64,000 bases of DNA from a virus. The stretch is taken from the IMG/VR virus record IMGVR_UViG_3300025288_000013, positions 32,001 through 96,000 of that record; one strand, given 5' to 3'. Each line of letters starts with the position of its first letter. The first letter of the stretch is position 1. The notes under the pieces were generated by a model, which saw only the letters and a program-made list of their open reading frames with translations, was not told the origin of the DNA and did no database searches. The position numbers were made by a program, and so were the translations under genes. This document shows positions 10,550 through 63,357 of the stretch, in pieces.

Positions 10550-10583
10550 AAAAGCCTATGGTAAAAATATCATAGGCTTTTTT
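10550..10583 (+). terminator. intrinsic terminator
   Basis: AAAAGCCTATG-loop-CATAGGCTTTTTT. Confidence 0.85.
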
Positions 10584-10610
10584 GTAACAATCTATTCATA
10601 AAACAGTTTA
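10583..10610 (+). promoter_or_regulatory. ECF-type promoter; the primase mRNA is probably near-leaderless
   Basis: TGTAACAA tctattcataaaaca GTTTAT; the GTTTA box ends 6 nt before ATG 10617. Confidence 0.75.
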
Positions 10611-15773: not shown

Positions 15774-15801
15774 TGTAACAAAAGTTAATATTGTGGGTTT
15801 T
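15774..15801 (+). promoter_or_regulatory. ECF-type promoter
   Basis: TGTAACAA aagttaatattgtgg GTTTTT upstream of 15837. Confidence 0.7.
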
Positions 15802-15836: not shown

Positions 15837-16364
15837 ATGAAAAACATTAAATTTAACATATCATCATTGGTGATATGGACCAGGTTTCTTTGGCTAATAC
15901 CATACAAAAAAGAAACAAAAACTTGTATTGATTCCATAACAATTGATGGTGTCGATAAAACAGCTGAAGATGGAATAAGAAGTATTGATGAAGCACTTGC
16001 AGATTGGTCTTCAATAAATCAATCTGTTAATAGGGAATTATCACAAGCCAAAGATATATGTAATAAGCTATCAAATCACATAGCCATAAAATCATGTGAC
16101 CCAATACTACCAAGTTTCAGATCTCTTGTTGCAGAATTATTTGTCGCACAAACCATTAGAGAGTTTGAAAAAGGAACAAAAATTGGTGAAAATTTGAAAA
16201 CCTTTATGTCACTAAACCGAATTGATACCAATAAAAACCTGGACATTTCTGTTTATGAAGATATTTGGGCAATAACCAAGAAAAAATTACATGTTTTTCA
16301 TAGAAACGTTTATTGTTTCAAGATGATAATGGATGATAAAATGTTTACCATAACTTTCAAGTGA
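15837..16364 (+). CDS. hypothetical protein
   Basis: ORF downstream of the promoter motif. Confidence 0.6.
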   Translation: MKNIKFNISSLVIWTRFLWLIPYKKETKTCIDSITIDGVDKTAEDGIRSIDEALADWSSINQSVNRELSQAKDICNKLSNHIAIKSCDPILPSFRSLVAELFVAQTIREFEKGTKIGENLKTFMSLNRIDTNKNLDISVYEDIWAITKKKLHVFHRNVYCFKMIMDDKMFTITFK

Positions 16365-16966
16365 TAATTATTGTGGACGACAGAAAAGACATAAATTATA
16401 AAACGGTTGAACTATTTGATGATAGTTCAACCGTTTTTATAAATAAGAATGTTGTGTCCTCTGAATACCTATCATCTGATGAAATCCAAAAATACCAAGA
16501 CAACGAATTATTTGAAAGCATAGTAAAAACGTTTTACAAAATAAATCACAAAATAAATCCAAAATATAGAACTTGTATTGATTCTATTTTAACAGATGCT
16601 TATTTAGTTAACACACCAATTTCTTACGACAATTGTAACGACTATAAAATTTTGTACAGAAGAGATAATACGTGCATAATATCAAATGGAAAAAATGTCT
16701 TAGAGGTTAATATCAACAACATTAGTATAGAACATGGCAATATAGGTTCAGAAGTTATATCATATATTTTTTCAGAGATTTACAAAATTTTAAAAAACGA
16801 CATAAATGATTATACAAAATTTTTCATTTATTTTTCAGACATTTTTAACATAGAATACAAAGATTTGTATGACAATGTGTCATATAAACATAGAACAACC
16901 ATAGAATCAACCATAAAAAACAAATTCAAGTATTTGTTTTCAAACACAGATGCAGCAATGTGGTAA
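16361..16966 (+). CDS. hypothetical protein
   Basis: GTGA overlap with the upstream ORF. Confidence 0.6.
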   Translation: MIIIVDDRKDINYKTVELFDDSSTVFINKNVVSSEYLSSDEIQKYQDNELFESIVKTFYKINHKINPKYRTCIDSILTDAYLVNTPISYDNCNDYKILYRRDNTCIISNGKNVLEVNINNISIEHGNIGSEVISYIFSEIYKILKNDINDYTKFFIYFSDIFNIEYKDLYDNVSYKHRTTIESTIKNKFKYLFSNTDAAMW

Positions 16967-16986
16967 AGCTTGGCACGATTTTTGCT
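16966..16986 (+). promoter_or_regulatory. sigma54 (-24/-12) consensus promoter, copy 1
   Basis: AAGCT TGGCAC GATTT TTGCT upstream of the sigma-like gene at 17038. Confidence 0.8.
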
Positions 16987-17037
16987 GTGTTATAGTATGA
17001 ATTTAAAACTTAACTTAAACTTAACTTAAACTTAAAC

Positions 17038-18120
17038 ATGGAACAAGAAAAAATTTATGTGAACAATTTCACAAAACTATCACAAAATTATTTTGAATCA
17101 AGATCACAAAAAGATTTTGCCAAAATTTATGCAGAAATAAGAATAATAGCCATGTCTGCAGCTAAAGGGCTAACAGTAGATTCACATGATTACGAAAGTA
17201 TAGTTGACGATATTTCTATGAAGCTTTATTTGAACTTTGATAAATATTATCAAGAAAATAAAAGTCTTTTATCTTTTGTCTTTGTTTCATGTAAACGAAA
17301 GTATTATACACTCAAGAAGACATACAACAAAAGTATTTGTGAATCAGACATGATAATAATAAATGACAAAGACGGTGGAGAAACATCAAAATTTAATCAG
17401 GCTTTGACAAATTATTATGGCGATTTTGTTGACCAAGAAAATGTGGAGGTTGATGCAGCCGATAACATGTTGCATTTATCGACAGATAGACAGATAGACA
17501 GAGTTAAAGAAATTGTTAAAGAAATGTGCTATAACGATAAAGGTGAGTTTAATGAAGACGAACATACCAAAATGATAGATATTCTTACACTAAGAAACGG
17601 CGAGTTTTCTCTTGGTGAAAATTTGGAAGAGTTAATACCATATATAAAAAATGAAGAAGTTGGAAGCGTGTCAGACTTTATTAGTCCAACCATAATTTCT
17701 AATAAATATGGTATAAAGAACAGAGCAACTGTGTCGGCAAAAAGAACAAGAGCCATAGAAAAAATAAGAAACATAATTTTGTCTGATATATCAAATTCAG
17801 AGATTTTTGACAAAGTAAATTATACAGGGACAAAAATTGTTAAAAAAGACATAAATGGCAAAATATACACACACACATATGAACTCATAGATGGTGTTGC
17901 AAATGGGGAATACAAAAAAGAAATTTTGATTAATTCAAAGAAAACAACTCTAACAATAGGAAAATTTGAAAATGGTAAAAAAATAGGCATATGGCATCAT
18001 TTTTTTGTTGAAAACGGATCTTATATGGGATATGTAGATTATAATAGTGGTAAAAGTTTTGAATATACTGATATGGACGAAACAAGTATGGAAACACGTA
18101 TAATGAAATTGTCTGTGTAA
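17038..18120 (+). CDS. phage sigma70/ECF-like RNA polymerase sigma factor with C-terminal MORN-variant repeats
   Basis: Region-2-like DFAKIY...DYESIVDDISMKLYLNFDKY...LLSFVFVSCKRKY; region-4 HTH SPTIISNKYGIKNRATVSAKRTRAIEKIR; tail GKFENGKKIGIWHHF. Confidence 0.65.
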   Translation: MEQEKIYVNNFTKLSQNYFESRSQKDFAKIYAEIRIIAMSAAKGLTVDSHDYESIVDDISMKLYLNFDKYYQENKSLLSFVFVSCKRKYYTLKKTYNKSICESDMIIINDKDGGETSKFNQALTNYYGDFVDQENVEVDAADNMLHLSTDRQIDRVKEIVKEMCYNDKGEFNEDEHTKMIDILTLRNGEFSLGENLEELIPYIKNEEVGSVSDFISPTIISNKYGIKNRATVSAKRTRAIEKIRNIILSDISNSEIFDKVNYTGTKIVKKDINGKIYTHTYELIDGVANGEYKKEILINSKKTTLTIGKFENGKKIGIWHHFFVENGSYMGYVDYNSGKSFEYTDMDETSMETRIMKLSV

Positions 18121-20192: not shown

Positions 20193-22234
20193 ACACCAAA
20201 TTTTTGTATGGTGCAATCCACACTTAGCGATGTTGTTCTATGACCCATAGTTATTCTATATCTTATGTCGGCTGGTATAATTACAGTAGCACTACCATAT
20301 CCAACCACTCTTCCAACCACTCTGAATATATTAGTTCCTATACCTGTTTCCAAAAATATCTGTATGTCAGTGTCACCAACGCCTTGTGTATAGGTATATA
20401 ATATTCTATCATATTCTTTTGCTGACAAAGACGTAATAGAAGTTGAAACAGAACCAGATGTATTAGTAAGATAAACCAAAGAACCAGATGTGTTTCCAAC
20501 TATGTTCCAACTAGCATCAAATGTTGGATTTATCGTGCTGACATTATTTATCAATTTTACTCTGCCTTTTGTTGAACCAGCCCCACCAACTAAGTTTATA
20601 TGCCCTCCTCTACTTGTTTGGCTTGAACCACCAGCAATATTAATATCACCGCCTCTACCAACTCCAAATCCACTGTTAACATTATATCCGCCAATAACAT
20701 TTATGTCACCTCCATCAAATCCACTTTTTCTACCTATGATATTTAGAACATTAGATATTGATGTGTATATGTTTGCTTGGAAACCATCTGGCGTTAACTT
20801 TGCTAAATGTACGCTTGGTATCGGTATAAGCGTTTCACCAGCAATGGTTTGTGCTGATCCAAAAACAGACATCAAAAACTCTCCATTTTTAGATGCTGCA
20901 TAATTTGAACTGTTGAACTTTATCCTACTTTCAGATGATGTTATTTCTAAGCCAACGCTATTATTAAAAATAATGGTTATAGAAGTTAACCCAATATCAA
21001 TTTTCTGATTAGCCGAGTTTGATAAAACAACATTGGTTGAATTCATGGAGAGATTTCTATTAGTATCATATATCATACTAATAATTGTTGGTGTTATTTC
21101 AAATTTGTGTGACGAATGTTCCATCAACAGTTTTGTTCCATCCATTGTCATATCACCAATATTTGTTGGGAATGATGGGTTTGGATAAACGAATCTAAAA
21201 GTCCCCATACCATGCAATGTGTGTGTTGGTACGCCTGTCCCAGTACCAATACCAACTCTGTCATTGTGTATTGTGATGTTATTTTGATTACCAATTCTTA
21301 ATTTTTCTGTGGTTGGGAATGTTAACAACCAAATGGATTGTGATTTTGAAAATATTAATGAATTTGTGGTGCCCATATTTTCTATATCAGACACTCCGCC
21401 AGAGAATACTAGTCTATTGGTATTAATCATTTTGCTGGTTACACCAGAATTTATGTCATTTTTTGTGCCAAATTCTGCTTGGTTATTTTTTATAACAGAC
21501 CATTCAACATTTGATTTTATATAATATATGAAATCCATAGATGTTAAACTTGCTGATCCAGTGGGGGTGTTTCTAAATTTTAAATTTAATTGTGAGAACG
21601 GTTTAGAATCAGTACCAAACGCATCGGCTATTTGGCTGGGGGTTGTGTTTGATTCTCCCAATATGTTACACAACGTCAACGTGTCCAGATCTGAACCCAC
21701 AAACGTGTTATTACCAATAATCAATCTCATGTATTCAGCATCGCCACCTATTCTTTTTGCCAATAATATATTTGATTCAGCATTTATTGTGTCAAAATGC
21801 CTCAATTTATGATTGGAAATGATACCCTGCGTACCAAAAATTAATTCATCAACAAAATCTGATGGAACATTTGGTGTATAAGCCAAATCATATTTCAAAA
21901 TACCATTGTCATCTATGATTTCAAAATATTGACCAGCATCATTAACCACTATGTCACCCAAATTATAGTTTGGATTCAAAACCAAACCACCATCTGTTGG
22001 AATATTATCAAAATGAAAGACACTACCAACATCCCCCTTATCCCCCTTATCCCCCTTAATTGATAAACCAGACCAACCTATGTCACCTTTGCTACCTTTG
22101 TTCATAACATTGACCGTGTGAAGATATATCTGATCAAAGTTGTGTTGAATTTTTTCTTTCAATGTCGATAGGGCATCACCATCTTGCAATTTCTTTAAAG
22201 TGATGTCTGGGTATGATGTAAAATTGTCAACCAT
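20189..22234 (-). CDS. tail fibre/baseplate structural protein with a short collagen-like GXY segment
   Basis: GSKGDIG...KGDKGDKGDVG (9-bp tandem repeats at about 22031-22058); Gly-rich GGDINI repeats. Confidence 0.6.
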   Translation of the reverse strand: MVDNFTSYPDITLKKLQDGDALSTLKEKIQHNFDQIYLHTVNVMNKGSKGDIGWSGLSIKGDKGDKGDVGSVFHFDNIPTDGGLVLNPNYNLGDIVVNDAGQYFEIIDDNGILKYDLAYTPNVPSDFVDELIFGTQGIISNHKLRHFDTINAESNILLAKRIGGDAEYMRLIIGNNTFVGSDLDTLTLCNILGESNTTPSQIADAFGTDSKPFSQLNLKFRNTPTGSASLTSMDFIYYIKSNVEWSVIKNNQAEFGTKNDINSGVTSKMINTNRLVFSGGVSDIENMGTTNSLIFSKSQSIWLLTFPTTEKLRIGNQNNITIHNDRVGIGTGTGVPTHTLHGMGTFRFVYPNPSFPTNIGDMTMDGTKLLMEHSSHKFEITPTIISMIYDTNRNLSMNSTNVVLSNSANQKIDIGLTSITIIFNNSVGLEITSSESRIKFNSSNYAASKNGEFLMSVFGSAQTIAGETLIPIPSVHLAKLTPDGFQANIYTSISNVLNIIGRKSGFDGGDINVIGGYNVNSGFGVGRGGDINIAGGSSQTSRGGHINLVGGAGSTKGRVKLINNVSTINPTFDASWNIVGNTSGSLVYLTNTSGSVSTSITSLSAKEYDRILYTYTQGVGDTDIQIFLETGIGTNIFRVVGRVVGYGSATVIIPADIRYRITMGHRTTSLSVDCTIQKFGV

Positions 22235-51908: not shown

Positions 51909-51930
51909 TTGCAAAAATCGTGCCAAGCTT
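51909..51930 (-). promoter_or_regulatory. sigma54 (-24/-12) consensus promoter, copy 2
   Basis: AAGCT TGGCAC GATTT TTGCA. Confidence 0.8.
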
Positions 51931-52505: not shown

Positions 52506-52566
52506 TGGTTTATGCTTATTTCTAAGACTTTATTGGTTTATGATTAAAATTTTTATATAATATACA

Positions 52567-52588
52567 TTGCAAAAATCGTGCCAAGCTT
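52567..52588 (-). promoter_or_regulatory. sigma54 (-24/-12) consensus promoter, copy 3
   Basis: AAGCT TGGCAC GATTT TTGCA. Confidence 0.8.
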
Positions 52589-52779
52589 TATATAAGACGA
52601 ATATCTTCTATTAGTACGTATTGGTGGTGTGTTTCGTACTCATATCTTACTCTAACTGTGTCATTTATTTTAGACCCATAATCGATGTGAGCAATAGTGT
52701 GACCGTTTATGTGGACAATTTCACCACCATTTGATACATGTGATTTGATATCTTTTAGTGTTCTTACTGACTGTGCCAT
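52588..52779 (-). CDS. small hypothetical protein
   Basis: Lies between two sigma54-type promoters. Confidence 0.65.
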   Translation of the reverse strand: MAQSVRTLKDIKSHVSNGGEIVHINGHTIAHIDYGSKINDTVRVRYEYETHHQYVLIEDIRLI

Positions 52780-52811: not shown

Positions 52812-52833
52812 TTGCAAAAATCGTGCCAAGCTT
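52812..52833 (-). promoter_or_regulatory. sigma54 (-24/-12) consensus promoter, copy 4
   Basis: AAGCT TGGCAC GATTT TTGCA. Confidence 0.8.
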
Positions 52834-54749: not shown

Positions 54750-54771
54750 TTGCAAAAATCGTGCCAAGCTT
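54750..54771 (-). promoter_or_regulatory. sigma54 (-24/-12) consensus promoter, copy 5
   Basis: AAGCT TGGCAC GATTT TTGCA upstream of 54715. Confidence 0.8.
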
Positions 54772-62963: not shown

Positions 62964-63311
62964 CTATTTATTATTTTGGTGAAACTTTGATATAACCGAT
63001 ATATTATCTTTTCCATAAAGTTCTTCCATAAAACATTTAACATTATCATTTTTACACTGATCAGCAACATATTCAACAAACAATCTGAAATCGTTCTTTG
63101 CTAATGCCAATCCAGCTGATAGACCGACTATATCTATGTGTTTTGAAATGGATGTTATGGCTTCAATAACCTTTATGTTTTTAACAACCTCATCAATTTG
63201 TGATATAGTCATTAATTGTCTTTGTGAATTTGGAAATTCTCTAAGCGATTTGTCATATAATTTCATTTTTTCTAACTCCAATTCTTCAAGATTTTTTGAT
63301 ATGTGTGCCAT
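62964..63311 (-). CDS. hypothetical protein
   Basis: Directly downstream of sigma54-type promoter copy 6. Confidence 0.65.
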   Translation of the reverse strand: MAHISKNLEELELEKMKLYDKSLREFPNSQRQLMTISQIDEVVKNIKVIEAITSISKHIDIVGLSAGLALAKNDFRLFVEYVADQCKNDNVKCFMEELYGKDNISVISKFHQNNK

Positions 63312-63336: not shown

Positions 63337-63357
63337 TTGCAAAAATCGTGCCAAGTT
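63337..63357 (-). promoter_or_regulatory. sigma54 (-24/-12) consensus promoter, copy 6
   Basis: AACT TGGCAC GATTT TTGCA. Confidence 0.8.

Follow-up and report, generated by a model that had tools for sequence, protein, structure and literature searches.

The DNA considered here, referred to below as the window, is a stretch of 64,000 nucleotides, bases 32001-96000 of a 110,222-bp IMG/VR viral contig (IMGVR_UViG_3300025288_000013; 30% G+C, completeness estimate 64%), in which a sigma-54-type promoter lies directly before the gene for a 360-amino-acid (aa) phage sigma factor. Judged by its family profile and its modelled fold, this protein is a divergent extracytoplasmic function (ECF)-type (group 4) sigma factor with a C-terminal MORN domain, and the promoter in front of it is real as sequence and probably functional. 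Three promoter classes -- sigma-54-type elements, a class built on TGTAACAA and an ATAAATA class -- sort by the function of the genes that they precede. The explanation favoured for these observations, to which we give somewhat better than even chances as a whole, is that an ECF-type phage sigma, itself driven by sigma-54, redirects the polymerase to the TGTAACAA class.

DNA of this contig has been found in groundwater and aquifer metagenomes, and a look for RNA runs containing it returned none. Among cultured phages the closest is Flavobacterium phage MaF61 (PQ858689.1), a 167.8-kb myovirus that is cultivable on Flavobacterium sp. B330, with a large terminase 39.7% identical to that of the contig and 44 proteins in common with it; the PurZ-like and TerL genes adjoin each other in both. 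A Shine-Dalgarno (SD)-like motif is seen in just 2% of the contig genes, and positions -13 to -11 are A-rich, the same as in MaF61. From the kinship with MaF61 and the starts without SD motifs, the host is likely a member of the Bacteroidota. A second relative, G002 (IMG/VR 3300006037_000005, L028-L034), is 126.6 kb long and has 25 proteins in common with the contig, at 25-47% identity.

The sigma factor and its family

The sigma gene (P0001) occupies 17038-18120 on the + strand and has been identified from its family profile, from Pfam matches in its relatives and from its fold. Alone, the open reading frame (ORF) has no match in Pfam or PHROGs. An exhaustive profile search collected a family of about 28 relatives, all of them metagenomic, the contigs that carry them being at most 132 kb long. 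Among these 28, Pfam detects Sigma70_r2 in 13 (best E 7.9e-9), Sigma70_r4_2 in two and MORN_2 in 21, and three relatives are annotated by JGI as members of the sigma-24 or sigma-70 family. The profile of the 28 sequences matches ECF sigmas in the PDB (5uxx_A at 3e-6, SigK at 1.4e-5 and RpoE at 1e-4), its alignment to the AlgU and SigH chains spanning 38-205 and thus both domains, and distant relatives in the alignment have a canonical region 4.2 sequence.

An AlphaFold model built from the 28-sequence alignment has a pLDDT (predicted local distance difference test) of 81, and the 14 structures that it matches best are without exception sigma factors; the sigma70 region-2-like and region-4 helix-turn-helix-like segments that an earlier note on this DNA, made from sequence alone, had seen in the ORF thus correspond to Sigma2 and Sigma4 domains by both family profile and fold. 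The Sigma2 domain (residues 9-99; 17062-17334, + strand; Pfam Sigma70_r2 E 0.013) was placed by fold match, residues 9-97 being closest to CnrH (Z 9.8, root-mean-square deviation, rmsd, 2.3 over 87 residues), with further matches to SigW (Z 9.6), BldN (Z 8.9), SigK, region 2 of sigmaE and T4 gp55 (Z 8.8). The Sigma4 domain (residues 147-252; 17476-17793, + strand), which includes the helix-turn-helix of region 4.2, is seen in the family profile as well as in the fold, where it matches region 4 of the DNA-bound E. coli sigmaE (2h27_D) with Z 6.3 and rmsd 2.5 over 69 residues. Region 1.1 and the sigma3 domain are absent: Sigma2 begins at residue 9, and residues 100-146 form a low-confidence linker with no sigma3 fold. 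The C-terminal part (residues ~259-345; 17812-18072, + strand) is a MORN_2 (YwqK-like) beta-hairpin repeat domain according to Pfam in the relatives and to the model, in which residues 259-360 match MORN-repeat proteins with Z 6-7.4; its role is probably regulatory. This ORF alone is sigma2-like in the contig, and a search of the contig for a second such protein with the family hidden Markov model found none.

An insertion in Sigma4, at residues ~183-215, is confined to the closest relatives. The region around it in these relatives (window 17476-17680, residues ~146-215) has a weak EF-hand/S100-like match at E 0.06, which is probably due to chance. A profile made from the four closest relatives alone gave just a weak S100/EF-hand match and a poor model (pLDDT 54), and Foldseek on the full model returned weak rows only. 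Loci of the closest homologues, P0003-P0006, were sought in viral and metagenome contigs and none were found; searches of phage records by megablast (with the region) and by tblastn (with the ORF) gave no match.

The sigma-54-type promoter element

The element, CTTGGCACGATTTTTGC, lies at 16969-16985 on the + strand and is an exact consensus match, with the GG at 16972-16973 and the GC at 16984-16985. Its 15-mer core, TGGCACGATTTTTGC (16971-16985, +), begins 5 nt past the stop of the upstream ORF and ends 52 nt before the ATG at 17038, so that the earlier note was right to place a sigma-54-type promoter immediately in front of the 360-aa ORF. With the T that follows, the element (CTTGGCACGATTTTTGC(T), 16969-16986) satisfies TGGCACG-N4-TTGCW, with GG at -24, GC at -12 and fixed spacing; its core is exactly TGGCACG-N4-TTGC, the sigma-54 consensus cited in a study of Flavobacterium psychrophilum (PMC9723704). 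Transcription is predicted to start near 16996-16998, which would give a 5' leader of about 40 nt (16997-17037, +; start taken from sigma-54 geometry) that is A-rich, lacks a Shine-Dalgarno sequence and contains a run of ACTTAA(A) repeats at 17008-17037. Similar AACTTAA words are seen in the leaders of other sigma-54 cassettes, and the repeats may be an SD-independent translation signal.

Six exact copies of the 15-mer are present in the window; with up to one mismatch there are 13 matches against 2.3 expected, a number reached in none of 100 shuffles. Across the contig the 17-mer CTTGGCACGATTTTTGC is present nine times in identical form, every copy co-oriented with a downstream gene, whose start lies 27-63 nt away for eight of the nine and 166 nt away for the remaining one. 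The stretch that is invariant among the copies is about 25 nt long (TAAAGCTTGGCACGATTTTTGCA), and in several of them the identity extends through the leader up to the ATG, making repeated promoter-plus-leader cassettes. The other exact copies in the window are all on the - strand, at 51911-51925, 52569-52583, 52814-52828, 54752-54766 and 63339-63353; since all of them fall within 51.9-63.4 kb, the copy before the sigma gene is, in the window, the sole one outside the accessory region, as the earlier note had stated. An extra copy of the 17-mer lies outside the window, at contig position 22044.

The copy at 63339-63353 is kept in L012 (IMG/VR 3300014202_000342), a 5.5-kb fragment from a close relative with protein identities of 67-95%, mostly 83-95%; there the cassette, with small indels in the leader, precedes a homologue of the gene at window 62964-63311. 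Four other IMG/VR contigs (L014, L024, L018 and L017) hold the same 17-mer as face-to-face TGGCAC-N5-TTGC pairs, one copy on each strand with 3-5 nt between them; the two arms have spacers that do not complement each other, so what is kept there is the sigma-54 pattern on both strands and not a hairpin. The possibility that the element is a hairpin arm, as in some other viral contigs, was rejected for the copies of this contig, which have no inverted partner.

Several observations bear on what reads the element. G002 has the same 15-mer five times, plus one variant, 27-56 nt before starts except for one at 303 nt, and this identity of DNA, kept while the proteins have drifted to 25-47% identity, points to a conserved reader on the host side. 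Conservation is highest in the two sigma-54 boxes and the spacer, and the -10-like stretch is variable among the copies; a constant spacer with a variable -10-like part is the opposite of what would be expected if the element were read in the sigma-70 manner, as TTGGCA-N16/17-TATTAT. The exact 18-mer CTTGGCACGATTTTTGCA is present in 44 bacterial genomes, where it lies 33-45 nt before genes for a ClpB-type ATPase (Bacteroidales metagenome-assembled genomes, MAGs, L068 and L083), the phosphate butyryltransferase ptb and a RocA-type dehydrogenase (two Bacillus; L054, L065); in B. subtilis, the ptb- and RocA-type genes each stand at the head of a sigma-L operon. According to mapped starts in F. 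psychrophilum, the sigma-54 motif SM4 drives groES/EL, lon, dnaK, grpE/dnaJ, htpG and clpB, and the remF promoter, which was mutagenised and validated, is TTGGCACGATTTTAGTTG, beginning TTGGCACGATTTT; a single sigma-54 and three PF00158 activators are encoded in that genome (PMC9723704). Near the starts of the contig, the sigmaA pattern of Bacteroidota (TTG-N18-21-TAnnTTTG) is not enriched, and the element was rejected as a sigmaA promoter of this kind for want of a conserved -7 TAnnTTTG box. Sigma54_DBD was not found in the phage contig.

In G002 the words TGTCATGTCA and GACATGACA occur in 4-5 of the six regions upstream of sigma-54-type elements, versus just 9-12 occurrences in 126.6 kb, which makes them a candidate activator or operator site; no counterpart of these words was found in the phage of the window.

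The ECF-geometry and ATAAATA promoter classes

The motif TGTAACAA-N15-GTTT is found 15 times in the window against 2.3 expected, and 20 times in the contig. In its fuller form, TGTAACAA-N14-GGTTTAT, the class has about 20 copies with the consensus tTGTAACAA-N14-gGTTTaT, and an unbiased two-box count arrived at GTAAC-N17-GTTT in 16 upstream regions of the contig. An AAC-containing -35 box and such spacing are features of ECF promoters. Polymerase B and guanylate kinase genes are among those headed by the class, as is the primase/helicase-exonuclease-PurZ unit; two members, each assigned by motif match on the + strand, lie at 10583-10609, heading a unit of primase/helicase, exonuclease, GroES-like and PurZ genes, and at 15774-15800, before an ORF at 15837-16364. 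MaF61 has an equivalent class, TGCAACAA-N13-GCATTA (consensus tTGCAACAA-N12-tgCATTA), recovered by the two-box count as GCAAC-N16-CATT in 28 upstream regions and heading a PurZ-like gene, a ligase gene and others. It also has a sigma homologue without the MORN tail, ORF93 (67707-68411, 234 aa, annotated as hypothetical).

That the phage sigma reads the TGTAACAA class, as the earlier note had proposed, is supported, not proven: the class does have ECF geometry and does head the replication and PurZ units, while the link from the sigma to the class is correlative and comes from the comparison with MaF61, its main support being that in two phages such a sigma and such a class are found together. 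G002 carries, besides its sigma-MORN homologue, a second, canonical short ECF-type sigma (G002:C1:83093-83539, - strand) adjoining its PurZ homologue, to which there is no counterpart in the contig of the window.

The third class, ATAAATA, is found no more than 60 nt from 26 co-oriented starts, among them those of terminase, portal, scaffold, neck-region and baseplate genes. It is enriched 4.4-fold upstream of genes in the contig, a signal weakened by the AT-rich background, and upstream enrichment is seen in all three phages. A -10 box like TATAAATA that stands before virion genes and has no -35 box is, together with a sliding clamp, a T4-type trait, and a sliding-clamp homologue (of MaF61 ORF136) is indeed present. 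The earlier note had assigned this late class to a gp55-like factor; the placement before virion genes bears out a part of that proposal, but no gp55 or gp33 homologue was found by PHROG or Pfam in the 40 ORFs scanned, a non-exhaustive set from a genome of which a third is missing.

A proposed regulatory cascade

The motifs, where they are placed, and the fold and family of the sigma factor are direct observations. From them we infer the reader of each motif, the need for an activator and the order of the classes in time, as follows. Host RNA polymerase with sigma-54 would first transcribe the sigma gene from its consensus -24/-12 promoter. The promoter-plus-leader cassettes, of which there are at least nine identical ones, would be a host-read and probably early class; they mimic the sigma-54 promoters of chaperone and stress genes in Flavobacteria, and so should depend on a host AAA+ activator. 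The Sigma2 and Sigma4 domains would then dock the phage sigma on the core of the host RNA polymerase, and the polymerase would be redirected to the ~20 TGTAACAA-N14-GGTTTAT promoters of replication and nucleotide (PurZ) genes. The virion genes have ATAAATA as a third signal.

The sites that the sigma-54 cassettes occupy are consistent with an early class. In MaF61 a cassette of ~130 nt is present seven times and consists of a hairpin plus a Bacteroidota sigmaA-type -33/-7 promoter (CTTG-N20-TAnnTTTG or TTTCTTTG); examples are at 68412-68585 and 52542-52703, and one such cassette precedes ORF93 and one ORF71. The homologues of ORF93 and ORF71 in the contig -- the sigma gene and a 953-aa ORF -- belong to units that have a sigma-54 element at their head. 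The sigma-54 cassettes thus occupy the sites of the host-read early promoters of MaF61, which supports both their assignment to an early class and a swap of one class for the other. A fuller version of this history is tentative and in our estimate has rather less than an even chance of being correct: the lineage would have swapped sigmaA-type early promoters, as seen in related Flavobacterium phages, for copies of host sigma-54 chaperone/stress promoters, a host AAA+ stress activator would gate entry, including synthesis of the sigma, and the MORN tail would provide a second control at the level of the protein.

A number of points weigh against the sigma-54-to-sigma cascade. The ORF's own Sigma70_r2 score, 12.5 bits, is under the Pfam cut-off of 24, and because of this its membership as a divergent ECF sigma rests on the family profile and the fold. 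A PF00158 sigma-54 activator is absent from the scan of the contig, which is ~64% complete, other AAA+ activators were not seen among the ORFs scanned, and an upstream activator site common to the nine copies was sought without success. The element can alternatively be read as TTGGCA-N16/17-TATTAT, a consensus scan listing TTGGCA-17-TAGTAT at 16970-16998. The pattern TGGCAC-N5-TTGC is absent from the whole of MaF61, and the sigma-MORN homologue of G002 is not preceded by a sigma-54 element, though such elements sit elsewhere in that genome. Since the arrangement is absent in both relatives examined, the wiring from sigma-54 to the sigma is, by this comparison, lineage-specific and not a conserved design. 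Lastly, G002, despite two ECF-type sigmas, has no TGTAAC dyad, and a two-box class was sought there with none resolved, so the link from sigma to motif rests on two phages.

Alternative explanations

Of the other ways to explain these features, one accepts the element as a promoter but not as one read by sigma-54: it would be served by the host primary sigma, through TTGGCA-N16/17-TATTAT, or by a factor that is encoded by the phage or delivered with the virion and has a site with no more than a likeness to the -24/-12 consensus. The alternative reading of the copy before the sigma gene would suit this, as would TTGGCA-N16-TATTAT in other copies, the failure to find a sigma-54 activator in the contig, the 25-nt identity among the copies, typical for phage-specific promoters, and the AAAGCTTG.ACGATT that a sigmaA-type early cassette of MaF61 has in common with the element. 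We nevertheless consider it unlikely, as the Bacteroidota primary sigma uses a -33 TTG and a -7 TAnnTTTG (PMC9723704) that the element does not have, and the best-kept parts are the sigma-54 boxes and spacer and not the -10-like part. A fast-evolving phage factor would, moreover, be unlikely to leave a common 15-mer in two phages whose proteins are at 25-47% identity, and the same 18-mer serves genes of known sigma-54 regulons in bacteria.

The ORF might also be a sigma that does not read the TGTAACAA class, the class being left to a host ECF sigma or to a factor from the missing third of the genome, and the ORF serving some other set, such as host genes or the ATAAATA class of late promoters, and being held elsewhere by its MORN tail. 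The correlative nature of the link from sigma to motif leaves room for this, as do the two ECF-type sigmas of G002 with no TGTAAC dyad, the presence of T4 gp55 (Z 8.8) among the fold matches and the many ECF sigmas of Bacteroidota genomes (PMC7826278). It too seems improbable, however: a complete Sigma4 domain implies a -35 box, which the TGTAACAA class alone has; the ORF is the sole sigma-like one in 110 kb; MaF61 pairs its sigma homologue with an equivalent class; and a stress-gated host ECF sigma would be an unusual choice for the polymerase gene of a lytic phage. Slighter still is the chance that the elements bind sigma-54 polymerase yet act as stress-conditional boosters of accessory genes, or as decoys for the holoenzyme, with the sigma gene expressed mainly from other promoters that escaped recognition. 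Closed complexes of sigma-54 are stable, and silent without an activator, neither activator nor upstream site was found, and the face-to-face pairs of other viral contigs look ill-suited to productive transcription; but each copy in the contig is oriented toward and close to a start codon, the leader is conserved, no other promoter class of host type was seen in the contig, and a terminator separates the region of the sigma gene from the unit upstream.

Surroundings of the sigma gene

This terminator is a perfect 17-bp hairpin followed by a U-run at 16400-16442 (+ strand; free energy, dG, -24.5 kcal/mol, z -7.4, with none of 200 shuffles folding equally well), a probable intrinsic and two-way terminator just past the stop of the ORF at 15837-16364 and between the promoter at 15774 and the sigma gene. 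The ECF-type promoter that the earlier note had reported at 15774 is real (TGTAACAA-N15-GTTT), but its statement that no obvious terminator lies between this promoter and the sigma gene does not hold, and the positive autoregulation that it had drawn from read-through is doubtful, because transcripts from 15774 would have to cross the strong hairpin. The hairpin is directly followed by TATAAATAAG and an ATG at 16449, and for this reason the 201-aa GTG-started ORF (16361-16966) probably begins at 16449 instead. Outside the window, a gene for a C-5 cytosine DNA methylase lies at contig 103314-104378 on the - strand (L044:7317-8378; Pfam 3e-29), in a phage that also has a PurZ-type gene.

Relation to known systems

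The earlier note had considered the three-tier design a candidate for an undescribed system, which was overstated, as the path from host sigma to phage sigma to middle and late genes is already known from phiEco32 (gp36) and Salmonella phage 7-11, in which a host-read promoter leads to a divergent phage sigma and this to private middle/late promoters, the sigma gene being under both host and phage promoters (PMC4331800). SPO1 follows the same path, from host sigma to phage sigma (PMC13401047). What is new here is sigma-54 as the entry class of an otherwise known cascade. The contig is like phiEco32 and 7-11 in having a host-read promoter first and a phage sigma of the sigma-70/ECF kind for the host core polymerase. 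The two described phages differ in their sigma-70-type entry promoters, in having phage-specific promoters on the sigma gene and in an anti-sigma that shuts off the host, whereas the contig has a sigma-54-type entry, a MORN tail, no identified anti-sigma and probably a Bacteroidota host.

The SM4 promoters of F. psychrophilum have the same -24/-12 pattern and a short leader, and the first 13 bases of the element are those of the remF promoter (PMC9723704); the SM4 regulon includes clpB, and the exact phage 18-mer precedes clpB-type genes in Bacteroidales MAGs. Those promoters, however, are chromosomal, in a genome with three candidate activators, while the contig has nine identical phage copies and no activator was found in it. 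The virulent Pseudomonas phage YuA is reported to rely on host sigma-54 in part of its transcription (PMC10914365, citing Ceyssens 2008); its sigma-54-like promoter is a single one beside sigma-70 and phage-specific promoters, whereas the contig has a class of at least nine, one of them heading a sigma gene. In ECF41, ECF42 and ECF56 a minimal sigma2-sigma4 core carries a fused C-terminal domain by which activity is regulated, with no separate anti-sigma involved (PMC8999054, PMC3426412, PMC7730460); the extensions described there are SnoaL-like or TPR domains in bacterial proteins, unlike the MORN_2 repeats in the phage protein of the contig. The main text of the 2021 reclassification of ECF sigmas does not contain the word MORN, and states that phage ECFs were not captured (PMC7826278). 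With the T4 late system (gp55, gp33 and gp45 at TATAAATA) the contig has in common a T4-like myovirus as relative, a sliding clamp and, before its virion genes, an ATAAATA without a -35 box; gp55 is among the fold matches to the Sigma2 domain of the ORF, but the ORF differs from it in having a full Sigma4 domain, and homologues of gp55 and gp33 were not found in the ORFs tested.

Phage sigma cascades have served as a classic example of how genes are controlled in time, and in the known ones the first step is made by the housekeeping sigma of the host, for which no activator is needed. Promoter opening by sigma-54 polymerase requires an activator driven by ATP, and because of this need a lytic phage whose early genes and sigma gene lie behind promoters of the sigma-54 type would have its infection tied to host signalling. 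If the proposed cascade is true, infection would be coupled to a host pathway, in Flavobacteria seemingly the chaperone/stress regulon and hence the physiological state of the cell. The parts may also be of use in Bacteroidota genetics as orthogonal and compact ones: the sigma-54 cassette, which has a consensus promoter, and the phage ECF sigma, for which the promoter is well defined. The cultivable MaF61 gains a previously unannotated sigma factor and a predicted regulon, and the cascade, if correct, would predict its order of expression, with the sigmaA cassettes (including that before ORF93) first, TGCAACAA-N13-GCATTA next and needing protein synthesis, and GATAAATA last.

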